Virus record (IMG/VR): IMGVR_UViG_3300022934_000003
Origin: a virus
DNA length: 64,000 nucleotides
Direction: 5' to 3' (one strand)
Shown: positions 1,226 to 40,185 of the stretch, piece by piece
Numbering within the stretch: the stretch's first letter is position 1
Layout of the letters: each line of letters starts with the position of its first letter
The notes under the pieces: model-generated
The model's database searches: none
Seen by the model: only the letters and a program-made list of their open reading frames with translations
What the model was told of the DNA's origin: nothing
Translations under genes and position numbers: made by a program

Positions 1226-1648
1226 TTATAAAGTTACTTCAAGAGCTTTAAAAGCTTCTAATGTTAATTCCTCTTCTAATTCATATGCTTCCACTTCCCA
1301 AGGAGCATCATGGTAATTAATATCTTCATGAACTAATGTACCTTTCCAACGATGTACACCGCCAATAATTTCTTTTAATTCACCACGTGCATATTGTTTT
1401 ACATGAATCATTTCGTGTACAACAGTACCAATTAATTCATACAAAGACATACCTTTACAAATTTCCATTTCAAATTCGCGATTTGTATCACCCATGAGGC
1501 AGTATCCATAAGCATCACTATTTTTAATAGTGACATCGATTTCGATATTACGGATACGCGGCATGAGTTTATGGAGACACCATTCGACGGTAGATGTTAC
1601 GATTTCACGTTCTTTAGATTTTCCACCGACTACATTAATATATTTCAT
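1226..1648 (-). CDS. HEXXH zinc metallopeptidase-like protein
   Basis: TVVHEMIHVKQY and PWEVEAY motifs. Confidence 0.7.
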   Translation of the reverse strand: MKYINVVGGKSKEREIVTSTVEWCLHKLMPRIRNIEIDVTIKNSDAYGYCLMGDTNREFEMEICKGMSLYELIGTVVHEMIHVKQYARGELKEIIGGVHRWKGTLVHEDINYHDAPWEVEAYELEEELTLEAFKALEVTL

Positions 1649-11925: not shown

Positions 11926-12801
11926 TTAAGGGAGTTTAATTTCTAAATTGTATTGATCTAAACACATGTCTTCTAGTGTTTTTGTGAGAGTAACTAAATT
12001 ACTTAGATCATCTACTACACTTGCTGTAGCATCACCTTCTCTACGAGGTGCAATTTCTTTTTCGATTTTAATACCTGTAACTTTTTCCATGCAATCAAGT
12101 ACTTCTAATACACTATATCCTTCATTACTTCCAAGGCATTCATATGGTGTATTTGCAGGACCTGTTTCTACTGCATTTACAATTGCATTAGTGAGATCCA
12201 AAATATGAATATAATCACGTATGCAAGTACCATCGCGAGTAGGATAGTCATTACCGTATATAGAGATTTTAGGAAGTTTGTTCGCAGCAACCATAGCAGC
12301 AACACGAATAAGATGGGTAGGAGCACCGAGCTGTCTGTTAACGCCATCAGTACCAGAAACATTAAAAAAACGGAAGATAGTATACCCATTTGCTTTCTCC
12401 TTAATAATATCTTCTGCTGCTACTTTACTTTTAGCATAAGGAGAAGCCATTTCCCAAGCACTACTTGTACTTGCAAAAATAAAATGGTCAGTACTTACGT
12501 TATCTAACATATTTGCAGTTCCCATAGCATTTACTCTATAGTATTCAGTTGGTTCTGACATACTTTGAGGAACAACACTACGTCCTGCTAAATGTACTAC
12601 AGCATCAAATTTACCACCAATCTGAGGATCGGTAATATCTATATTATACCAGTCTGGACAATAATCTGAAATATCATTATATTCACCATGAATATTAGTA
12701 TCCCATCCTGTAACATGATGACCATGTTCTTTTAACATTTTACATACATGACTACCGATATAACCAGTTGCACCTGTCACTAAAACATTTTTTACTTCCA
12801 T
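11926..12801 (-). CDS. galE: UDP-glucose 4-epimerase (extended SDR)
   Basis: TGATGYIG, HLAG...V..S, YAKSK, RFFNVSG, YPTRDGTCIRDYIH, RREGD. Confidence 0.88.
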   Translation of the reverse strand: MEVKNVLVTGATGYIGSHVCKMLKEHGHHVTGWDTNIHGEYNDISDYCPDWYNIDITDPQIGGKFDAVVHLAGRSVVPQSMSEPTEYYRVNAMGTANMLDNVSTDHFIFASTSSAWEMASPYAKSKVAAEDIIKEKANGYTIFRFFNVSGTDGVNRQLGAPTHLIRVAAMVAANKLPKISIYGNDYPTRDGTCIRDYIHILDLTNAIVNAVETGPANTPYECLGSNEGYSVLEVLDCMEKVTGIKIEKEIAPRREGDATASVVDDLSNLVTLTKTLEDMCLDQYNLEIKLP

Positions 12802-20052: not shown

Positions 20053-20574
20053 ATGGCTAAGCGTAACTACGTTAATAATAAAGACCTACTCGCAGCAATG
20101 GTAGATTATAAAGCAAGTTGCCAAGAAGCAGAAGAAGCTGGTGACAAAAAACCACGCGTTCCTGATTATATTGGTGAATGCATTTTACAAATTGCTACGA
20201 GATTGGCTACTAAACCAAATTTTTCTGGATATTCATATAAAGAAGATATGATTTCAGACGGTATTGAAAACTGTTTACTTTACATAAGCAACTTTAATCC
20301 AGATAAATCTAATAATCCATTTGCATACTTTACACAAATTATTTGGTATGCATTCTTAAGACGTATTGCAAAAGAAAAGAAACAAATGTATATTCGTTTC
20401 AAATCTTCTCAAGCATTTCTTGCAGCAGGTCAAACATATGAAGGTGATGAAGATTTAAGTTTACATTTAAATACTGCAGCAGATTATATGAATACATTTA
20501 TTGAAGATTTTGAAGATAAACTTAATCGTGATAAACAAAAGAAAAAAGAAAAAGAAGAAGAAAAGAAAAAATGA
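20053..20574 (+). CDS. Late sigma factor gp55
   Basis: YVNNKDL, PNFSGYSYKEDMISDGIENC, NPFAYFTQI..AFLRRI.KEK. Confidence 0.95.
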   Translation: MAKRNYVNNKDLLAAMVDYKASCQEAEEAGDKKPRVPDYIGECILQIATRLATKPNFSGYSYKEDMISDGIENCLLYISNFNPDKSNNPFAYFTQIIWYAFLRRIAKEKKQMYIRFKSSQAFLAAGQTYEGDEDLSLHLNTAADYMNTFIEDFEDKLNRDKQKKKEKEEEKKK

Positions 20575-20930
20575 GATTTACAAAAGAACACGAATGGATT
20601 AAAAAAGAAGGTGACTTATATTTAGTTGGAGTTACTCAACATGCTATTGAATTATTAGGTGATTTGGTTTATATTGAATTACCAGCACCAGGTGAAGTGT
20701 TTGATAAAGATACAGAATGTGCTGTAGTAGAATCTGTTAAAGCAGCTTCAGATGTTTATTGTCCAGTATCAGGCCTGGTGACTGAAATTAATGCATCATT
20801 AGAAGATACGCCTGAAGCAGTAAGTGATGATTGGACTACATGGATATTTAAATTAGAAAATGTAAACGAAGCAGATTTAGAAGATTTTATGGATGAGGAA
20901 GCTTATAATAAGTATATCGAGGGATTATAA
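20571..20930 (+). CDS. gcvH: Glycine cleavage system H protein (lipoyl carrier)
   Basis: FTKEHEW, VGVT.HA..LLGDLVYIELP, VESVKAASDVYCPVSG with lipoyl-Lys. Confidence 0.9.
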   Translation: MRFTKEHEWIKKEGDLYLVGVTQHAIELLGDLVYIELPAPGEVFDKDTECAVVESVKAASDVYCPVSGLVTEINASLEDTPEAVSDDWTTWIFKLENVNEADLEDFMDEEAYNKYIEGL

Positions 20931-23988: not shown

Positions 23989-26568
23989 ATGCCTGATTTT
24001 TACACCAACGTAGATCGAATTGGTAACTTTATTCTATGGCGAGGATATCAAGCCGGACGAAAGTTCGAACGTAAAATTAAATACGAACCTACTATCTTTG
24101 TAGGTACTAATAATAAAGAATCGATGTGGAAATCTCTTATTGATGATAGTCCACTTCAGGCTACTAAAAAAGGTACGATGAAAGATACTCGTATCTATAT
24201 CGAAGATCATAAAGATGTTCATGGATTTAAAATTGCTGGTAATAGTAATTATGTTGCGCAATTTATTCAAGAGCATTATCCTGATAATATTGAATTTGAT
24301 CCATCATTAATTAATATCGTTTCGTTTGATATAGAGGTTGATATATCTGATGGTTATGCTAATATTAACCAAGCAGATAAAGAAATTACATCTATTGCTT
24401 ACAAGTCGACTAAACACCTAAGGTATCATTTGCTTGGTCGTAAAGACTATGATAAGACTCAAACTATTACTGATATTAATCCAGATAATATCGAATTTAA
24501 AAAGTTTGATACTGAACATCAATTACTTCAAGAGTTTAAACGTATTTGGATGGAAGACTATCCTGATATTGTAACTGGTTGGAACGTTGAATATTTTGAT
24601 ATTCAATATATTATAACTCGTATGATTCGTTTATTTGGCGAAGACTGGGTTAAAGATCTATCTCCTTGGCGTAATATTCGTCAGCAATCTCGTGAAGTAT
24701 TTGGTAAAAAACAATCAACTTGGTCTATATCTGGTATATCGATTATTGATTATATGGATGCTTTTAAGAAGTTTGGTTACAAATATGGTCCACAAGAATC
24801 TTATAAACTAGATCATATTGCTTACGTCGTGCTTGGTGAAAAGAAATTAGATTACTCTGAATATGGTTCTTTGACTGCTTTGTACGAACAAAATCCACAA
24901 CTTTATTTGGATTATAACCTTAAAGATACATGGCTTGTTGAAAAGCTTGAAGAGGAATCAGGTCTACTATCTCTTGTAATGACTGTTGCTTATGGTGGAG
25001 GTGTAAACTATTCTGATGCATTTGGTACCGTGAGTATTTGGGAAACAACTCTTTATCGTCGACTGATGAAAAAAGGTATTGTGCCTCCATTAAAAGGTGG
25101 TCCTGGTGAACGCGTTGCTGAACTCGTTGGTGGTTATGTTAAAGATCCAAAGGTTGGAATGCATCCTTGGGTTGTCTCATTCGATCTAAATTCTCTATAT
25201 CCACACCTGATGTTACAATATAACTTGTCACCAGAAACATATGTAGACAACGCACGAGAATATATTAACCAAGATATGGTGCTCAATGGACAAGAAGTTG
25301 CAGATCCTAATAATCCTGGTAGTACAATGCGTGTACCATATCAAAACAGATCTAGGTATGCAACATGTGCTAATGGTGCATGCTTTAGAAAAGATAAACT
25401 TGGTATCATTCCTGAAATCATTGATGAATATTATGCTACTCGATCTGGAATTAAAAAGCGTATGTTACAAGTTGAACAAGAACTTGAAACTGCGAAGGGT
25501 ACTGATAAATTAGCTCTTAAACGAGAAGCTAACCAATTACATAATCAGCAAATGGCGATTAAGATTGCTATGAACTCTTTGTATGGCGCAACAGCAAATA
25601 TTTACTTCCTATATTATATTAACGATATGGCTGAAGCAATTACAACATCTGGCCAATTGTCAATTCGTTACGCTCAAAAATCTGTAAACGAATATCTAAA
25701 TAAGTTATTGAAAACAGATAGTGTTGATTATATTATCTACATCGATACAGATTCTATCTATGTTAATATGGGACCTGTTATTCAAGCTTCGTTTGGTACA
25801 ATGGATATCGATCGTGCTAAAGGTGAAGAGTTCCTTGATAAAATTTGTGAAATGAAAATTGAACCTATTATTGATGCTGGTTATAAAGAACTTGCTGAAA
25901 AGATGGGAGCATATCGACAAGCAATGAGTATGAAGCGAGAAAAGATTACTGATAAAGCAGTATTCATTGCAAAGAAACGTTATATTTTAAATGCACTTAA
26001 CTCAGAAGGTGTACATTATGAACAACCTAAGATTTCTGTTACAGGTTTGGAATCAGTACGATCTTCTACTCCGGAAGTTTGTCGTGATAAACTGAAAGCA
26101 GCATTTAAAGTAATTATGAATGAAGGTGAAGAAGCAATGCAAGAATTTATTGCTAATTTTAAAGATGAGTTCTTTAAACTACCACCTGAAGCTATTGGCC
26201 GTAACTCCGGTACAGATAATATAGATAAGTATAGGAATAGAGAAACATTGTACAAAAAAGGTTGTCCAATGCACGTAAGAGGTTGTATTCTTTATAATTA
26301 TCATTTGAAAGAAAAGCAGTTAGATAAAAAATTCGAATCTGTTATTTCAGGTGATAAAGTAAAGTTTGTTTATCTTAAAACACCTAATCCTATTCGTGAA
26401 AATATTATATCGTTTCCCGGAGTACTTCCTAAAGAACTTGGATTGCATGACTATATAGATTATGAAAAGCAATTCGAAAAGGTTTTTCTAAGTCCTCTTG
26501 AATCTATCCTCGAAGCGATCGGTTGGTCTGCAGAGAAGGTAAATACTCTTGAAGACTTTTTTGTTTAA
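23989..26568 (+). CDS. Family B DNA polymerase gp43
   Basis: FDIEV exo [29 protein letters not shown]; C-terminal TLEDFFV. Confidence 0.97.
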
Positions 26569-26763: not shown

Positions 26764-27279
26764 ATGAGTAAAGATTGGGCCCAAGATATTCATGAAATGC
26801 AAAACAAGTTCCAACTACCTAATTGGGTAAAGGATAATCCAGATAAACTTAAAGAGTTTTTAGAGTTTAGGATTCGTTTTGTTCGTGAAGAATTGGAAGA
26901 AACAGAAAAAGCGTTTGCAAATAAAATTGACGCAGAAGAAATTGTAGATGGTTTAATTGATATATGTGTAGTTGCTATCGGCACACTTGATGCATTTAAA
27001 GTAAATTCTCATCAGGCATGGGATCAAGTTATGGAAGCTAATATGTCAAAAGAAGTTGGTGTAAAACCAGAAAGACCAAATCCACTTGGTTTACCAGATT
27101 TAATGAAACCAGAAGGTTGGCAAGCTCCATCTCATGCTGGTAATCACGGTTTATTAGCAAATCTATATCGTCTTGATAAGATTGGACAAGGACTAAAACA
27201 GCAAGTAGAATCAGGAACTTTGTCTGCAGATGATCTAGATTATATTGAAAAAATTGCAAAAAGTTTGAAAAAAGGCTAA
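26764..27279 (+). CDS. All-alpha NTP pyrophosphatase (MazG/PRA-PH-like; candidate dCTPase or dUTPase)
   Basis: EELEE...EEIVDGLID...V.EANMSK...KPEGW..P. Confidence 0.8.
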   Translation: MSKDWAQDIHEMQNKFQLPNWVKDNPDKLKEFLEFRIRFVREELEETEKAFANKIDAEEIVDGLIDICVVAIGTLDAFKVNSHQAWDQVMEANMSKEVGVKPERPNPLGLPDLMKPEGWQAPSHAGNHGLLANLYRLDKIGQGLKQQVESGTLSADDLDYIEKIAKSLKKG

Positions 27280-30710: not shown

Positions 30711-31406
30711 ATGATGAACGTTGCTGATATTAAAAATTACTTTGTTGGTGAACTTGAAGCTCAACGCTTTACCGTAGATAAAACTGGTGCAAAAACTATT
30801 GAGATGCTTGGTGCATCTTTTAAAGCAGATAAACCAGCCATTTTTGGAGTACCTTCTGATGAGTATATACAAAAAGAAATCGCGTGGTATGAAAAGCAAT
30901 CAACCAACATTAATGACATCTATGGTGAAGAACGTGATGCTCCTGCTGCTTGGAAATATGCTGCTGATGCTTATGGGAATATTAATAGTAATTATGGAAA
31001 AATAGTTTTTTCTGATCAATACTATAATCAATTTGAAAATGCATTAAATGAACTGAGAAACAATCCAGACTCTCGTAGAGCTGAAATGGTTTATAACCGT
31101 CCAAGTATTTGGAAAGAGTTTGATGAGAATGGTAAATCAGATTTTATTTGTACTAATGCACAAACATTCTATATTCGTGATGGTAAACTTCATTTGGTTT
31201 CTCAAATGAGATCTAATGATGTTGTATTTGGTTATAAAAATGATTATGCTTGGGCTCAATATCTAATGGATAAAATGGTTACTGCATATAATGATACTAT
31301 AGATCTAGATAGTGATTACATTACTAAAGGCGATCTTATTTGGCAAGTACAAAACTTACACGTTTACGAAAGACATTTTGAATTAGTTGAAGCGTATGGG
31401 ATGTAA
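30711..31406 (+). CDS. dCMP hydroxymethylase (T4 gp42-like, thymidylate synthase fold)
   Basis: INSNYG, SRRA, SDFICTN catalytic Cys, MRSNDVVFGYKNDYAW (Asp at the dCMP-specificity position, as in T4 RND), LHVYERHF. Confidence 0.88.
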   Translation: MMNVADIKNYFVGELEAQRFTVDKTGAKTIEMLGASFKADKPAIFGVPSDEYIQKEIAWYEKQSTNINDIYGEERDAPAAWKYAADAYGNINSNYGKIVFSDQYYNQFENALNELRNNPDSRRAEMVYNRPSIWKEFDENGKSDFICTNAQTFYIRDGKLHLVSQMRSNDVVFGYKNDYAWAQYLMDKMVTAYNDTIDLDSDYITKGDLIWQVQNLHVYERHFELVEAYGM

Positions 31407-32318: not shown

Positions 32319-32651
32319 ATGAGTTATTTAGTTATAGATAATTGTGTTAAATGTAAGCACACTGATTGTGTTGAGGTTTGTCCTGTAGACTGCTTTTATG
32401 AAGGACCTGATATGTTAGTAATCAATCCAAGCGAATGTATTGATTGTGGTGTATGTGAACCTGAATGTCCTGTTGATGCAATTGTGTTAGAAACAGATTT
32501 AAAAGAAGATGAACGTAAGTTATGGACAGAAAGAAATGAAAAGTATTCTGAAATCTGGCCTAATATTGTAGATAAAAAAGATCCTCCATTTGATTTTGAT
32601 GAGTGGGAGGGTGTACCTAATAAGTTTGAAAAATTTGTGGAGCCAAAATGA
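32319..32651 (+). CDS. fdxA: 7Fe ferredoxin, FdxA type (start corrected to MSYLV)
   Basis: [21 protein letters not shown]...[16 protein letters not shown]...WPNI. Confidence 0.9.
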
Positions 32652-33745
32652 AAAAAGTTTTAATTACTGGAATGAATAAATTACAATGTACAAAAGATTT
32701 CTTTTTGCAACAACAATTGCAAGTTGTACCTTCTCACTATTCTGTTATTCGTTCTCTTGAAGATATGGGTTATCAAGTAGAACAAAGACCTGTAGCACTT
32801 GGTGAAGATCTATCTGGTTATGATGAGGTTATTGTTTATATTCATAGTATTCAATCGTTTTGTCAATTCATTTGGTCTGGTTTATATGCAGTACATGCCC
32901 GCCCTAATTGTATTATTGCCTTTGATGATTGGCAATTTAATCAAATCTATGGAGCCATTCAAACATATAAAGAGAACCTCGAGAATGACGATCCAGGTGT
33001 TTTTAGACAATACCTATTTGATCTATGGCAGGGTAAAGAAGATAAAGAAACAGTGATGAAATATAAAGACGCATATATTGATGGCTGTAATATTATTACA
33101 AGTAAACAAAATAGATTATTAGTAAGTGCATTCGCTGGTGGTGATTTATCAACACTAGAATTAGGATGGAGTCCAGAAAATACATACACATTTAATCCAA
33201 ATCCATATCATCTTAATCGTCGTGCAGACAATGGATATGGAACTGGAACAGTGGGATTAGATAATTTCTTTGGTGATACACCAGAAAAAGAAATGAAATG
33301 GAACTTCGCTTCTCTAGTGCAAGAGAAAACGAGGAAATGGTTAAAGGCACAGCAACCTGACGATTGGAAGTGGGAAATTGTTTATTATGGCGCTAAGCGC
33401 GGAAAATACAAGTCAGAGCGTAAAACTGAGCCCGAGATGGTGAAGGTATTCGAACAACAGTGGGGTTGTTTAATGCCAGGATACTTTCACGCAGGATCCG
33501 GGTGGTGGCGAGCACGCCCGCTTCAGGTTGCCGATGCCGGTTCTATTATCATTGGTGATAAACCAGAAATGATGGTATATTATCAAGATGATTATTTAGC
33601 GGGACTAAAAGTTTCAGATGTAGAAGCAATGGATCTTACACAACTTAAACAAACTGCTCAAGCACAAAGAGATGCATTATATGATAATCATCCTCTAGAT
33701 AAAAAAGTACAACAAGAAGAAATGAAGAATATTTTAGAAGCATGA
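32648..33745 (+). CDS. GT-B fold glycosyltransferase (DNA beta-glucosyltransferase-like)
   Basis: N-terminal Rossmann strand KKVLITG; C-terminal [19 protein letters not shown] parallels T4 BGT LRVWETMASDAVMLID; genomic context. Confidence 0.55.
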
Positions 33746-34761
33746 ATATATTAGTAGTAGGCGCAGGATTATCAGGAGTAACAATTGCACGTGAGATGGC
33801 TGAAGCCGGACATATTGTAGATGTAATTGATAAACGCGATCATATTGCTGGTAATGCTTATGATTATATTAATGAATATGGTATTCGTGTACATCAATAT
33901 GGACCCCATTTATTTCATACAAATAATAAAGAAGTGTTTTCTTATCTTTCTAAATTTACCGAATGGGTTCCATATAAGCATAAAGTGAAAGCATTATTAG
34001 AAGATGGTCGTTATGCAACTCTACCAGTAAATAAAGAAACAAAAGAAATGGTTGGTGAATCAAATGTACTTGATATTTTCTTTAGACCATATACAAAGAA
34101 AATGTGGGGAGTTGAGCTTGATGAATTAAATCCTGATATTGTAAATCGTGTTCCAATTCGTGATGATGATAACGAATATTATTTTCCAAACGATGCATAT
34201 CAGTTTATGCCAAAAGACGGTTATACTAAAATGGTGGAAAATATTTTATCTCATATAAACATTACGGTAAAATTGAAAACAGAATACGATAAAGAAATGA
34301 ATAGTCATTATGATCATGTATTTAATTCAATGCCAATTGATCAGTATTTTGATTTTAAACATGGAGACTTACCATATCGATCTATTAAATTTGAAACTAT
34401 AACAGTACCATTACCTATAGCATTACCAACTGCTACAGTTAATTTTACTCATGATGGTCCACAAACTAGAGTAACAGAATGGAAGCGCATCCCGTTTCAT
34501 GGTATAAATAAATATCATACAACATTAACTTTTGAAACTCCGTGTGATTATAAAGATAATAATATGGAGCGTTACTATCCTATTAAAGATAAAGATGGTA
34601 CAAATAGAAAGTTATATGAACAGTATAAAAGTGAGCAACCGGATAATATGACTTTTATCGGTAGATGTGGATTATATGCGTATTTAGATATGCATCAAGC
34701 TGTAAATTCTGCATTAGCTACCGCAAAAAGATTTTTAGAGAATGAAACACGAAACCAGTGA
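33742..34761 (+). CDS. glf: UDP-galactopyranose mutase
   Basis: VVGAGLSG, HIAGNAYD, HQYGPHLFHT, YTKKMWG, YQFMPKDGY, LPYRS, TRVTE, YYP, GRCGLYAYLDM. Confidence 0.93.
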   Translation: MNILVVGAGLSGVTIAREMAEAGHIVDVIDKRDHIAGNAYDYINEYGIRVHQYGPHLFHTNNKEVFSYLSKFTEWVPYKHKVKALLEDGRYATLPVNKETKEMVGESNVLDIFFRPYTKKMWGVELDELNPDIVNRVPIRDDDNEYYFPNDAYQFMPKDGYTKMVENILSHINITVKLKTEYDKEMNSHYDHVFNSMPIDQYFDFKHGDLPYRSIKFETITVPLPIALPTATVNFTHDGPQTRVTEWKRIPFHGINKYHTTLTFETPCDYKDNNMERYYPIKDKDGTNRKLYEQYKSEQPDNMTFIGRCGLYAYLDMHQAVNSALATAKRFLENETRNQ

Positions 34762-34874: not shown

Positions 34875-36074
34875 ATGAGTGAGTTTACACATGCAAGTAT
34901 AGTACCTTTAATTGGTGGTGAAACAATAGGATCTGCAAATGCTTTTGGATCTCCTCCATTACATTTTATGTCATATGAAGCGTTTGCTAATAACGATCAG
35001 CATATTAGAAATTATTATAAAGATACGCCATATTACGTTTTAGATAAAGGTGATAAAATACCAGAGCAAAGAGCTGATGTAGTTTCATCGGTATGTCCTT
35101 GTGCTGGTTTATCAATGATGTCTCACGGTTATGGCGATGATAATCAAAATAATAAATGGATGGTAGAAACAGCAACTACTATTCTTGGTGATTATAGACC
35201 AAAAGTATTCTGGGGAGAAAATGCTCCAGGATTTGCTGGTAAGATTGGAAAAAATATTCGTGAACAATTAAGAGGTATTGGTAAAGAGAATGGATACACA
35301 ATGAGTGTATATCGTACTCGTTCTTTATTGCATGGTGTACCTCAGGTAAGAGAACGTTCTTTTTATTTCTTTTGGCAAGGTAATCAAGTTCCTATTTTTG
35401 ATTATTATAAAAGAGATTATACACCAATTGAAACGCTTATTCGTAATGCAAAAGGTACTCAAAATAATCCTATTAATAAAAACACACCATCTGAAAATCC
35501 ATATTACAAATATATTCTTGAAGAGATTGAAGGTGGTAAAACACATGCTCAACATTCCAATTCAGTTCCTCCAACATCAGCAAGAGGTGTAGATGCTTTT
35601 TCTTATATTGAAAGAGCAGGTAAAGATTATAGCCAAGTTGGTAAATGGATGGGTGAAAATGGATTTGAAAAAGAAGTAGAAAAATGTGAATACAAATATG
35701 ATAAACTAAAAGCCGGTAAAAGTATTATGAGACGTGGAGTAATTATTCCTAAAGATCGTATTGGTGCTTTTGTTGGTCATTATCCTACAATGCTTACACA
35801 TCCAGATGAGGATAGATTTATTACATATCGAGAAGCTATGTCTATTATGGGATTGCCAGAAGATTTTGAATTAGTAGATGCTAGTAAAAAGAATGCTAAT
35901 CATATTTGTCAAAACGTTCCTGTAAAAACTGCTCAAGATATGGCGCATGAAGTATTACAAACTTTAAAAGGTAAAAGAAAAATGGTTGACACGGAGTACG
36001 TTTTGCAGTATAATACTACTAATAAGCTTGAATTTGATGAGAGCTTAAGTACCCTAGAGGATTTTTTAGTATGA
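34875..36074 (+). CDS. Divergent DNA cytosine-C5 methyltransferase
   Basis: Motif IV CPCAGLS, motif VI ENAPG, motif VIII PQVRER, motif IX/X HPDEDRFITYREA...GLPEDF...QNVP; atypical motif I IVPLIGG. Confidence 0.8.
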   Translation: MSEFTHASIVPLIGGETIGSANAFGSPPLHFMSYEAFANNDQHIRNYYKDTPYYVLDKGDKIPEQRADVVSSVCPCAGLSMMSHGYGDDNQNNKWMVETATTILGDYRPKVFWGENAPGFAGKIGKNIREQLRGIGKENGYTMSVYRTRSLLHGVPQVRERSFYFFWQGNQVPIFDYYKRDYTPIETLIRNAKGTQNNPINKNTPSENPYYKYILEEIEGGKTHAQHSNSVPPTSARGVDAFSYIERAGKDYSQVGKWMGENGFEKEVEKCEYKYDKLKAGKSIMRRGVIIPKDRIGAFVGHYPTMLTHPDEDRFITYREAMSIMGLPEDFELVDASKKNANHICQNVPVKTAQDMAHEVLQTLKGKRKMVDTEYVLQYNTTNKLEFDESLSTLEDFLV

Positions 36075-36712: not shown

Positions 36713-37591
36713 ATGGAAATAAAAGTAACAATCGAAGAACTTAGAAAGCATAAAGTATTTGTGGGAACACCAATGTATGGTGCTCAATGCGCTGGTACTT
36801 ATACTAAATCAAGTACTGACTTAGCAATGATAGCAGCTGCAAATGGTTTAAATTTCAGATTCTATTATCTATTTAATGAGAGTTTAATTCAAAGAGCTCG
36901 TAATTATATTGTAGATGAGTTTATGAGATCTGATTGTACTCATTTATTGTTCATTGATTCTGATATTGGTTTTAATGCAAGAGATGTTTTATCTTTATTG
37001 GCTGTTCAAACATCAGATCCAGAAAAATATAATATTGTTACTGGACCATATCCAAAGAAAACTATTGCATGGGAAAAGGTATACAAAGCAGCACAAGCAG
37101 GTAGAGCAGATGAAAATCCATTTGAATTAGAAAACTACGCTGCTGATTTTGTATTTAATCCAGTAAAGAAAGTTAATCAGTTTAATTTATCTGAACCAAT
37201 TGAAATTGGTGAAGGTGGTACAGGATTTATGTTAATTCCTCGTGAAACTTTTGAAAAGTTTGGTAAGGCATATCCTGAATTACAATATAAACCAGATCAT
37301 GTTAGAACACAACAGTTTGATGGTTCTCATGATATTATGGCTTATTTCGATTGTATAATCGATCCAGTGTCTAAGCGCTATTTGTCTGAAGATTATTTCT
37401 TCTGTCATAAAGCACGTGAAGCTGGAATGCATGTTTATATGTGTCCTTGGATGCAATTACAACATATAGGATCTTATATTTTCAAAGGAAATATGGCTGC
37501 TATTGGAAGTCTTGGTGTTTCTGCAACAGCAGATTCTTCTGGTAGTCGTAAAACTTATGAAAAGAAAAAGAAAAAGAAACGTAAAAAATAG
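36713..37591 (+). CDS. GT-A fold glycosyltransferase-like protein
   Basis: GTPMYG, ESLIQRARN, LFIDSDI (DxD), GTGFMLI, LSEDYFFC. Confidence 0.75.
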   Translation: MEIKVTIEELRKHKVFVGTPMYGAQCAGTYTKSSTDLAMIAAANGLNFRFYYLFNESLIQRARNYIVDEFMRSDCTHLLFIDSDIGFNARDVLSLLAVQTSDPEKYNIVTGPYPKKTIAWEKVYKAAQAGRADENPFELENYAADFVFNPVKKVNQFNLSEPIEIGEGGTGFMLIPRETFEKFGKAYPELQYKPDHVRTQQFDGSHDIMAYFDCIIDPVSKRYLSEDYFFCHKAREAGMHVYMCPWMQLQHIGSYIFKGNMAAIGSLGVSATADSSGSRKTYEKKKKKKRKK

Positions 37592-37658: not shown

Positions 37659-38324
37659 ATGAAATTTTCTGAACAAACTCTTACTATTTTAAAGAGCTTT
37701 GCATCGATTAATAAATCGATTCTAATGAAACCTGGTAATACACTTAAAACTGTAACACCGGAAAAAACTTTGATCGCAACTGCAGATATTCCGGATACAA
37801 TCCCATCTGAAGCTTGCGTATATGATTTATCAAGATTTTTATCAATTCTTGGTCTTTATTCTGACCCAGATGTGGAATTTCATGATAAATACTTTATGAT
37901 TAAAGATGGTAAGCGTAAAACAAGATATGCTTTCGCTGACATCTCTATGATTCATGCAGCGCCAGAGAAGACAATTCAATTGCCTTCTAATGACGTTGAG
38001 GTTGATGTATCATGGGACGACTTACAGTCTGTTATTAAGGCTGCTGGTGTTCTACAATTTTCTGAGATTGCTTTCGTTGGTGAAGCAGGTAAAGTTTACC
38101 TAAAAGCCGTTGATAGTACATCTGAAAATTCTGATGATTATGGAATTGAAATTGGTGATACGTCTGATGAATTTAAGATTATTATTAAAAGTGATAATCT
38201 TAAGCTTTTACCTCAGGATTACAAAGTTACTCTTTGCGCGAAGGGTATCTCTGAGTTTAAAGGCAAGGGTGCTACATATTTTGTAGCAATTGATACTAAG
38301 TCGACTTATAAGGAAGGAAATTAA
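37659..38324 (+). CDS. Sliding clamp gp45
   Basis: MKFSEQTLTILKSFASIN.SI, YDLSRFL, NLKLLP.DY.V. Confidence 0.93.
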   Translation: MKFSEQTLTILKSFASINKSILMKPGNTLKTVTPEKTLIATADIPDTIPSEACVYDLSRFLSILGLYSDPDVEFHDKYFMIKDGKRKTRYAFADISMIHAAPEKTIQLPSNDVEVDVSWDDLQSVIKAAGVLQFSEIAFVGEAGKVYLKAVDSTSENSDDYGIEIGDTSDEFKIIIKSDNLKLLPQDYKVTLCAKGISEFKGKGATYFVAIDTKSTYKEGN

Positions 38325-38657: not shown

Positions 38658-39611
38658 ATGGCTATTGACGCTAAAGAAAACGAAATTCTATTTGTAGAAA
38701 AATATCGTCCACAAAAGATTGACGATACAATTCTTCCAGAAAAAACAAAGAAAGCTTTTAAAAAATTTGTACAAGATGGAAGTATTCCAAACCTATTACT
38801 AACTGGTGGACCAGGTGTAGGTAAAACCACAATCGCTAAAGCAATGCTTGAAGAATTAGGTTGTGATTATATTGTAAAAAATGGTTCACTAAATGTAAAT
38901 ATTGATACACTGAGATATGATATATCAACATATGCATCAGCAGTTTCTTTAACTGGTGGTCGTAAATATGTAATTTTTGATGAAGCAGATTATCTAAATG
39001 CTGCATCAGTTCAACCTGCCCTTCGTAATTTTATTGAAGAGTATTCATCTAATTGCGGTTTTATTTTTACTTGTAACTTTAAAAATCGTATTATTCAACC
39101 ATTAAGATCTCGTTTATCTGAAATTGACTTCACGATCGAAACAAAAGATCGTCCTAAATTGGCAATGGACTTCTTTAAACGTGTTAATAATATTCTCGAT
39201 AATGAAAATATTGAATACGATCAAAAAGTAGTTGCAAAAGTAATTGAAAAGCATTTCCCAGATTTTCGCCGAGTATTAACTGAGCTTCAATCATATGCTG
39301 CTTCAGGTAAAATCGATGAAGGCATCTTTGTTAATCTTAAACAAGACTCTATGGATGCATTGTTTAAGTTATTAAAAGAAAAGAATTTTACTGAAATGCG
39401 TAAATGGGTTGCAAAAAACTCTGACCAAGATATGAATGAAATGTTTAGACGTATCTATGATATGGCAACAGATAAAGTTGAAATGAGATCTATGCCTGGC
39501 TTTGTTGTAACACTCGCTGATTATATGTACAAATCTAATTTTGTTGCCGATCAAGAAGTAAACATGGTAGCATTTTTAACAGAAGTAATGTTAGAAGCTG
39601 AATATAAGTAA
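38658..39611 (+). CDS. Clamp loader ATPase gp44
   Basis: EKYRP, GGPGVGKTT, DEAD, SR. Confidence 0.95.
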   Translation: MAIDAKENEILFVEKYRPQKIDDTILPEKTKKAFKKFVQDGSIPNLLLTGGPGVGKTTIAKAMLEELGCDYIVKNGSLNVNIDTLRYDISTYASAVSLTGGRKYVIFDEADYLNAASVQPALRNFIEEYSSNCGFIFTCNFKNRIIQPLRSRLSEIDFTIETKDRPKLAMDFFKRVNNILDNENIEYDQKVVAKVIEKHFPDFRRVLTELQSYAASGKIDEGIFVNLKQDSMDALFKLLKEKNFTEMRKWVAKNSDQDMNEMFRRIYDMATDKVEMRSMPGFVVTLADYMYKSNFVADQEVNMVAFLTEVMLEAEYK

Positions 39612-39790
39612 TGGGATTATTTAGTAAAAACAAAGCAAGTTGTTTTAATTGTGGTTCTAAGTTGAAAAAAAATAAAACATACACAGTTAAAATTAACACC
39701 ATCGAAGGTTTAATGAATGTTAAAGCTTGTGAAAAATGCGGTTTAGAACTAGATGAAATAGTTAAAGAATTTGAGCAGGTAATGAAATGA
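39611..39790 (+). CDS. 59-aa zinc-ribbon protein
   Basis: Hand-translated: CFNC...CEKC; coupled to gp44 and gp62. Confidence 0.6.
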   Translation: MGLFSKNKASCFNCGSKLKKNKTYTVKINTIEGLMNVKACEKCGLELDEIVKEFEQVMK

Positions 39791-40185
39791 GTAAAGATTA
39801 TAGCCCGTTTGATTTTATGAATGCTGTATCTTTTACTAAAGAAGATCTTATTGGTAATTCTGATTTACCAGAAATGGTAGAAAAACAATATACACCTTAT
39901 ATGGTTAATCGTGGATTTACTAATTTTGAAGATACGATTTTACATGCAAACGAAATGAATATGAGACATTATCTTTTTCATGATGCTCAATTTCAATATT
40001 ATCGTGCAGCATTACGTAAAAGAAAACGTTTTAGTAAATGGCCAAAAGCAGATAAAAGTATTGATTTAGATGCAATACAAGAAGTCTATCAATGTAATAG
40101 AACTGTTGCTAAACTATATTATAAAGCATTATCTGAAAAGGATATGAAATATGTACATGATAAGCTCGTTACTGGCGGCGCATGA
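39787..40185 (+). CDS. Clamp loader subunit gp62
   Basis: PFDFMN, Y.PYMVNR, ANEMN, RKRFSKW. Confidence 0.92.
   Translation: MSKDYSPFDFMNAVSFTKEDLIGNSDLPEMVEKQYTPYMVNRGFTNFEDTILHANEMNMRHYLFHDAQFQYYRAALRKRKRFSKWPKADKSIDLDAIQEVYQCNRTVAKLYYKALSEKDMKYVHDKLVTGGA

Follow-up and report, generated by a model that had tools for sequence, protein, structure and literature searches.

A polymerase-type C-terminal tail on DNA-modifying enzymes of marine T4-like phages: a probable docking peptide for the gp45 sliding clamp

Why should an enzyme with the fold of a cytosine methyltransferase end in almost the same residues as the DNA polymerase of the same virus, and what is such an enzyme doing among genes for hydroxymethylcytosine (hmC)? 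The question is raised by the gene at positions 34875-36074 of the IMG/VR virus record IMGVR_UViG_3300022934_000003, of which a stretch of 64,000 nucleotides (the window) was analyzed. The window is part of an uncultured marine T4-like myovirus of ~32% G+C. Among deposited phages, neither near-identical DNA nor a close relative was found; marine metagenomes contain many relatives, the longest of their contigs measuring about 220 kb. An earlier note on this DNA had claimed that the methyltransferase and the polymerase share a clamp-binding tail and that the modifying enzymes ride the sliding clamp. The features needed for this comparison are as follows.

23989..26568, + strand: family-B DNA polymerase, gp43 homologue, 859 aa
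26542..26565, + strand: polymerase tail NTLEDFFV
34875..36074, + strand: C5-cytosine-methyltransferase-fold enzyme of the PLIGG subfamily, 399 aa
36048..36071, + strand: methyltransferase tail STLEDFLV, proposed gp45-docking peptide
37659..38324, + strand: gp45-type sliding clamp, proposed docking hub (Pfam gp45-slide_C, E 1.3e-19)

The claimed pair of tails was borne out by the C-terminal ends of the translations, ...ESLSTLEDFLV in the methyltransferase and NTLEDFFV in the polymerase. The two octamers are identical at 6/8 positions and form the sole such pair among the C-terminal octamers of the 84 genes of the window, the next-best pair reaching 4/8. When one random internal octamer was taken from each protein, some pair at 6/8 appeared in 10 of 2,000 trials. 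The DNA coding for the two tails is identical at 19 of 27 nucleotides and differs at synonymous codon positions; hence, the likeness is held at the level of the peptide and is not copied DNA. Judged from the sequences, it is neither chance nor the product of a DNA duplication. The proposed docking peptide is placed at the extreme C-terminus, after a variable linker and beyond the catalytic fold, which ends at residue 367. In the AlphaFold2 (AF2) model, the methyltransferase tail has a predicted local distance difference test score (pLDDT) of 64 and contains a short helix at residues 394-398.

Loss of the tail from homologues had been set beforehand as the outcome that would speak against the idea, and the tail turned out to be kept. 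About 115 of 120 metagenomic homologues of the methyltransferase (63-80% identity) end in [ST][LI][ED]xF[FLI] followed by none to two further residues, and the dozen residues ahead of the tail vary freely among the 120. Both the methyltransferase and the end of the polymerase are present at 14 IMG/VR loci, and at every one of them the two proteins carry the motif. In three of these loci the polymerase is only 45-47% identical; at the locus L012 the two tails read NTLESFFA and NTLESFFE. No tail is present in the closest cultured homologues, which come from cyanophage S-TIM5 and Pseudoalteromonas phage XG4 (about 31% identity); they therefore cannot serve as models.

The distribution of the tail over other genes was followed with a strict pattern, [LIV][ED]xF[FLIYM] plus up to two further residues, in the genes of at least 80 aa (n = 1,219) from 80 related viral loci. 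The pattern matched 119 of the 1,219 genes: 14 of 14 polymerases, 73 of 80 methyltransferases, 32 proteins of the cassette next to the methyltransferase, and nothing else. All 32 tailed cassette proteins are encoded between the dCMP deaminase and the methyltransferase, and all are glycosyltransferases (GTs) of four kinds: alpha-glucosyltransferase (AGT)-like proteins of 474-479 and 469 aa, a protein of 406 aa with a weak GT4/GT1 match, TAGT of 279-281 aa, and a protein of 417 aa with a weak GT match. The sugar-donor enzymes of the same cassettes in the 80 loci (Glf, GalE, UDP-glucose dehydrogenase, cytidylyltransferase, and nucleotidyltransferase) never had the strict tail, with 0 matches in 17 Glf homologues. 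Since the tail is carried by polymerases, methyltransferases, and glycosyltransferases but never by sugar-donor enzymes, it separates DNA-acting from metabolite-acting enzymes in the manner of a tag.

The partner of this tag is suggested by the polymerase. Its last 140 residues align with residues 765-901 of RB69 gp43 (E 6.5e-9), and the tail NTLEDFFV is colinear, column for column, with the RB69 terminal peptide (...kkaSLFDMF), which has been crystallized on RB69 gp45 (1B8H; PMC2988020). The T4 gp43, gp33, and gp55 tails are interchangeable clamp-binding epitopes placed after variable linkers (PMC2988020); T4 gp43 ends in SLDFLFG, and T4 ligase binds gp45 via the internal loop EGLDFLFD (PMC6212786). 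The tails described here belong to the same motif class as these known gp45 ligands (acidic plus hydrophobic, L-x-x-F-F). A gp45-family clamp, matched by profile to T4/RB69 gp45 along the full length (E 1.7e-42), is encoded in the same genome as the methyltransferase, together with its loader:

38658..39611, + strand: clamp loader large subunit, gp44-like, named by its position (gp45-gp44-gp62-regA synteny) and translation
39787..40185, + strand: clamp loader small subunit, gp62-like (phrog_225, E 1.3e-33)

Altogether, these comparisons make it likely that the methyltransferase tail, [ST]-L-E-x-F-[FLI], is a docking peptide for the phage's own gp45-type clamp, through which modification is proposed to be coupled to replication. 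The clamps left on the new phage DNA by the gp44/62 loader would recruit the methyltransferase through its tail and, in the relatives, would recruit the hydroxymethylcytosine glycosyltransferases as well, while in the window phage the glycosyltransferase with a fold like that of T4 beta-glucosyltransferase (BGT) might dock via an internal loop. Modification would then closely trail the fork, ahead of host nucleases meeting unmodified DNA. The claim that modifying enzymes ride the clamp is thus supported by comparative evidence, namely the conserved tail, its co-occurrence on both proteins in 14/14 loci, its restriction to DNA-acting carriers, and the RB69 alignment; it is from these that we infer the physical binding to gp45, as we infer the activity of the enzyme from its motifs.

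Compared with the T4/RB69 system, the arrangement is familiar: like the peptides of gp43, gp33, and gp55, the methyltransferase tail is a short acidic/hydrophobic peptide at the extreme C-terminus after a variable linker, the cognate polymerase has it too, and a clamp of the gp45 family is encoded close by. What differs are the carriers, which here are DNA-modifying enzymes (the methyltransferase fold and, in relatives, glycosyltransferases) instead of the polymerase and transcription factors. A literature search, with most subscription journals outside its reach, returned no report of clamp-docking tails on phage methyltransferases or glycosyltransferases.

The chemistry of the enzyme was approached through its fold and its motifs:

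34899..34919, + strand: divergent motif I, IVPLIGG instead of FxGxG, residues 9-15
35094..35114, + strand: motif IV CPCAGLS; contains the catalytic Cys76 and pairs with the HhaI/HaeIII PC motif in alignments
35214..35228, + strand: motif VI GENAP, Glu115
35343..35357, + strand: motif VIII QVRER, Gln157, Arg159, and Arg161
35910..35924, + strand: motif X QNVPV, Asn347
35976..36047, + strand: C-terminal extension, small beta-meander plus variable linker, residues 368-391

The AF2 model of the 399-aa enzyme (pLDDT 94.4) superposes on M.HhaI with Z 26.1 and a root-mean-square deviation of 3.2 Å over 298 residues (model 2-367 against chain 10-325; VIA-align). It also superposes on HaeIII, DNMT1, MET1, and CmoX, DNMT1 being among the best matches (Z 25.6). 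The structural alignment to HhaI stops at 367, and residues 368-399 are an add-on past the canonical fold, made up of a small beta-meander, a short linker, and the tail. Pfam PF00145 was matched with 75.4 bits against a cut-off of 22 (E 7e-21), the match being confined to residues 59-360. Conservation of the motifs was counted over 60 relatives of 28-55% identity. In motif IV, C76 is kept in 59/60 and P75 in 55/60; E115 of motif VI and both R159 and R161 of motif VIII are kept in 60/60; Gln346 and Asn347 are invariant or nearly so (N347 in 56/60), and the same is true of P11, L12, G14, and G15 of motif I. Position 35, that of the motif II acid, is occupied by S (20), P (9), D (9), K (8), and E (5), also by T, and is acidic in only 14/60. 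Despite the divergent motifs, the strand-loop-helix geometry of the cofactor side is kept in the model. By alignment and model, the catalytic Cys, Glu, and Arg and the C5-methyltransferase fold are intact.

The likeness to M.HhaI and M.HaeIII (PF00145) accordingly covers the fold, the motif IV Cys, the motif VI Glu, the motif VIII QxRxR, and the motif X Asn, whereas the phage enzyme differs in having PLIGG for FxGxG in motif I, no conserved motif II acid in its subfamily, an added C-terminal extension of 32 residues that includes the tail, and a gene placed inside an hmC pathway. The atypical motif I had been pointed out in the earlier note, and IVPLIGG does stand at residues 9-15, but it is not peculiar to the window gene. 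The PLIGG subfamily comprises 1,287 clusters at E up to 0.001, the proteins of S-TIM5 and XG4 among them, so the odd motif I is a family trait.

The placement of the gene creates a paradox. The key enzyme of the module is the following:

30711..31406, + strand: dCMP hydroxymethylase, T4 gp42 homologue

It aligns over residues 2-228 with PDB 1b49 (E 4.2e-66) and keeps both the catalytic Cys (FICTN versus FMCTN in T4) and the cytosine-specifying Asp (NDYAW; Asp179 in T4). Wherever a related locus extends far enough upstream, the methyltransferase comes with a gp42-type hydroxymethylase (33/33 loci), in the order gp42, usually the deaminase, a variable glycosyltransferase cassette, and then MT-DexA-GTA-gp45-gp44-gp62 (MT, the methyltransferase). 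The presence of DNA glycosyltransferases of the AGT, TAGT, and BGT kinds implies hmC in the DNA. The C5 position of hmC is already occupied. The contradiction noticed earlier between a C5-methyltransferase and an hmC genome is therefore real and conserved, as the enzyme is fixed in the hmC module of all 33 loci. As a sign of full cytosine exclusion, a counterpart of the T4 gp56 dCTPase was sought in the 171-aa MazG-like protein (26764-27279), which gave generic MazG-like matches only and none to T4-type phages. No TET/JBP dioxygenase converting 5-methylcytosine (5mC) to hmC was found among the 39 window proteins scanned with Pfam. The dinucleotide and palindrome statistics (CpG odds ratio 0.70, TG/CA 1.13) gave no clear methylation footprint.

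Our best guess is that the enzyme carries out S-adenosylmethionine (SAM)-dependent C5 methylation of the cytosines that escape hmC replacement, which would result in a mixed 5mC/glycosyl-hmC genome; the retained motif X Asn and catalytic motifs are what point to methylation of residual cytosine. Several observations speak against so simple a chemistry: NCBIfam TIGR00675 (dcm) scored 37.9 bits, under its cut-off of 100.65; the SAM-binding motif I departs from FxGxG, and the position of the motif II acid varies; and a gp42-type hydroxymethylase is present although the C5 of hmC is occupied. A minor alternative is that the enzyme is not a SAM-dependent cytosine methylase at all and uses the Cys-C6 covalent chemistry with another cofactor or substrate as part of hmC hypermodification, for example, for substitution at the 5-methylene of hmC in DNA or for transfer of another one-carbon unit onto residual cytosine. 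There are reports of C5-methyltransferases adding aldehydes to cytosine and derivatizing hmC in vitro. The constant place in the hmC module beside the variable glycosyltransferase cassette would suit this alternative, as would the PLIGG motif, the unconserved motif II acid in the 60 relatives, and the hidden Markov model alignments to solved methyltransferases, which begin only at about residue 43-63 and skip what lies before. A natural enzyme with the C5-methyltransferase fold and another cofactor does exist in CmoX, a DNA cytosine C5-carboxymethyltransferase working with carboxy-SAM (Cx-SAM), in which Arg350 replaces Asn304 of HhaI (PMC12783734). We nevertheless consider such a non-methylase unlikely. 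The entire N-terminal Rossmann part of the model superposes on HhaI from residue 10; the two motif I glycines, Asp57 of motif III, Phe37, and Asn347 of motif X are kept; and the PLIGG subfamily is also present in S-TIM5 and XG4, with no hmC pathway shown beside the gene there. For a CmoX-type carboxymethyltransferase in particular, the SPPC and Arg350 signatures are absent, the window enzyme having VCPC and Asn347 (QNVPV) instead; the retained Asn347 makes a Cx-SAM enzyme unlikely.

A slim chance is left for a reading that joins the tether to a different chemistry. The clamp-tethered enzyme would be not a methylase but a patching enzyme, whose pocket, remodelled by PLIGG and the lack of a motif II acid, accommodates a partner other than SAM and which turns cytosines slipped into the nascent DNA, or hmC, into a substrate for the clamp-tethered glycosyltransferases, be it by hydroxymethylation at the DNA level or by substitution at the 5-methylene. 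It would explain the fixed place of the enzyme in the hmC module of every relative.

Docking to the clamp itself was also examined by predicted folding of the clamp with methyltransferase residues 360-399. The complex obtained an ipSAE (interaction score from predicted aligned errors) of 0.37 (runs 0.34-0.40), whereas three controls with unrelated partners or hubs did not exceed 0.00; the runs agreed in at least 46% of contacts, and the pLDDT of the partner was at least 38. Of 80 solved complexes, 58 attain the mark applied, as do 2 of 110 mismatched pairs, but passes at 0.60 or under came from only 7 of the 80 and from both mismatches; the support for docking is weak. Structures of similar complexes are available for RB69 (1B8H) and for T4 gp45 bound to the ligase peptide; the pass may therefore come from the predictor's memory of such structures and shows likeness at best.

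Some results count against the clamp as the partner. The peptide is poorly modelled, and unless backed by a strong prior, most passes at so low an ipSAE are wrong. The sole experimental precedent, the T4 alpha-glucosyltransferase-gp45 interaction proposed from in vitro work (2004), was not reproduced in the pull-downs of a 2025 preprint, which used C-terminally His-tagged enzymes (10.64898/2025.12.06.692756). Finally, the gp55 late sigma homologue of the window (20053-20574, + strand; phrog_234, E 1.4e-61) has a Lys/Glu-rich end without the hydrophobic epitope by which T4 gp55, a clamp client, binds the clamp; this phage may link late transcription to the clamp in a different way, or through another protein.

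These results leave some room for a hub other than the clamp: the tail would be a real docking tag read by a single-stranded DNA-binding protein, the clamp loader, a packaging or scaffold factor, or another replisome or DNA-bound protein. Direct evidence covers the tag and where it occurs, the gp45 fold test was weak, and T4 glucosyltransferases did not pull down gp45. We hold such a hub to be quite improbable, given that the polymerase tail is colinear with an RB69 gp43 tail whose crystal-structure partner is gp45 (PMC2988020, PMC6212786), that L-x-x-F-F with acidic and hydrophobic residues is the motif class of known gp45 ligands, and that the unrelated-partner and unrelated-hub fold controls came out at zero. 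That the likeness has no function at all, being chance, the structural end of a fold, or a leftover of recombination, can practically be set aside: short acidic/hydrophobic ends are not rare, and the random trials did yield an occasional 6/8 pair, but the tail is kept in >100 homologues while the preceding linker varies, it occurs on four unrelated glycosyltransferase folds but on none of about 1,100 other genes, it is located beyond the fold, and codon usage differs between the methyltransferase and polymerase copies.

Docking of the methyltransferase tail to gp45 thus stays the reading that we prefer, and it bears on the glycosyltransferase of the window, which carries the motif internally:

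32648..33745, + strand: GT-B glycosyltransferase with a T4 beta-glucosyltransferase-like fold, 365 aa
33254..33274, + strand: internal loop GLDNFFG, candidate internal clamp-docking loop, residues 203-209
33742..34761, + strand: UDP-galactopyranose mutase (Glf), sugar-donor enzyme without the tail (Pfam GLF, E 3.3e-53)

According to Foldseek, the model of this protein (AF2, pLDDT 82.6) is a GT-B closest to SenB and T4 BGT (1qkj/1j39, E 2.5e-7 to 4.4e-7, TM 0.54-0.57; for 1qkj, E 2.5e-7 and TM 0.54/0.56), then to T4 AGT. It had no Pfam match; hence, the fold is shared, but the protein is not a family member by sequence. The internal GLDNFFG named in the earlier note was found in a low-confidence loop (pLDDT 63 for residues 201-210). 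The loop varies in length between the invariant anchors NPNPYHLNR and WNFASLV, and 20 of 23 homologues, with identities as low as 49%, retain L-x-x-F-[FL]. T4 DNA ligase offers a parallel, since its EGLDFLFD also presents L-D-x-[FL]-F in a flexible loop inserted in an enzyme domain (PMC6212786). The ligase belongs to another enzyme family, and the loop of the glycosyltransferase is a candidate for clamp docking by analogy. A further protein of the window, encoded at 1226-1648 (- strand; 140 aa, phrog_10499, HExxH motif HEMIH), has LTLEAF ten residues before its C-terminus; it could be a further clamp client, or LTLEAF could be merely part of the terminal helix.

The sugar chemistry of the module appears to be variable. 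Relatives have swapped the cassette located between dCMP deaminase and methyltransferase (L023, L029, L033, L038, L042, L044, L048, L052, L057, and others), its variants being a BGT-like GT with Glf, with or without GalE; an AGT-like protein of 474 aa with a 338-aa protein and a cytidylyltransferase; a GT4-like protein of 406 aa; a full AGT of 410 aa without the tail; and TAGT with GalE and UDP-glucose dehydrogenase. The swaps suggest different sugars on hmC in otherwise syntenic phages. In the window, GalE (11926-12801, - strand) and the UDP-galactopyranose mutase make up a route from UDP-glucose to UDP-galactofuranose, and a glycine-cleavage H protein (GcvH; 20571-20930, + strand; Pfam GCV_H, E 9e-35) is encoded between gp55 and gp47. 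The combination of GcvH, the GalE/Glf route, gp42, and the BGT-like transferase fits a furanosyl-hmC modification.

A second class of tail was seen within the PLIGG subfamily, K-x-L-F, with 25 of 132 full-length cluster representatives ending in LF. On three contigs of this kind (L081, 274-3614; L083, 728-1531 and 9950-11224; L089, 1140-4815), neighbouring proteins also end in L-F, namely a Glyco_transf_25 protein, a second methyltransferase, and two proteins of unknown function. The contigs retrieved for this class were 2-31 kb long. By its sequence context, K-x-L-F looks like a second docking tag that DNA-modifying enzymes of a different phage lineage have in common.

The genes surrounding the methyltransferase follow the order uvsY, uvsW, gp55, GcvH, gp47, gp46, gp43, MazG-like, DUF1599-like, gp42-like, MazG-like, dCMP deaminase, ferredoxin, GT-B glycosyltransferase, Glf, methyltransferase, DexA-like exonuclease, GT-A-like, gp45, gp44, gp62, regA, and dUTPase. 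One of them is a constant neighbour:

36713..37591, + strand: phrog_1574 protein (E 3.5e-60), probably GT-A-like, with a poly-Lys tail

This protein had no Pfam match and contains a DSD motif; it is present in 65 of the 80 loci and has a Lys-rich end in the homologues too. It may, to judge from its sequence, be a DNA-binding GT-A-like enzyme that makes no use of the clamp tag. Over the whole window, GTCGAC was observed 18 times versus 5.9 expected from a Markov model, and the palindromes CCATGG (0 versus 3.3 expected) and GGATCC (2 versus 10.5) were avoided.

Outside the T4 group, the nearest parallel is DNMT1, the maintenance cytosine methyltransferase tethered to PCNA by a PCNA-interacting peptide (PIP) box (PMC9690074). 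In both cases, an enzyme with the C5-methyltransferase fold is coupled to a replication clamp by a short linear motif, the docking being a proposal for the phage enzyme. The two differ in that the phage solution would be an independent invention, its clamp is the phage gp45, and the phage enzyme has no domain that reads hemimethylation. The clamp motif of DNMT1 is N-terminal, and the tail of the phage methyltransferase is C-terminal. With the T4 alpha-glucosyltransferase-gp45 pair (proposed in 2004 and contested in 10.64898/2025.12.06.692756), the proposed arrangement would share the coupling of hmC glycosylation to the fork via gp45. No polymerase-like tail has been reported for T4 AGT, whereas the AGT-like, TAGT, and GT4-like enzymes of the relatives carry an explicit tail of the polymerase type.

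In viral metagenomes, the tail can be used as a simple sequence rule to pick out modification enzymes that act on DNA, being absent from nucleotide-sugar enzymes. The C5-methyltransferase-fold enzyme and the dCMP hydroxymethylase form a conserved and unexplained pairing, which bears on the coexistence of pre- and post-replicative cytosine modification in one genome, a question raised in 10.1101/2023.12.21.572611. If the tail binds gp45, the disputed story of the T4 alpha-glucosyltransferase and gp45 would be recast in the light of the explicit tails on the glycosyltransferases of the relatives. These phages would also have reached independently the solution that animals use in DNMT1 and PCNA, in which the marking enzymes are tied to the clamp so that new DNA is never left unmarked.

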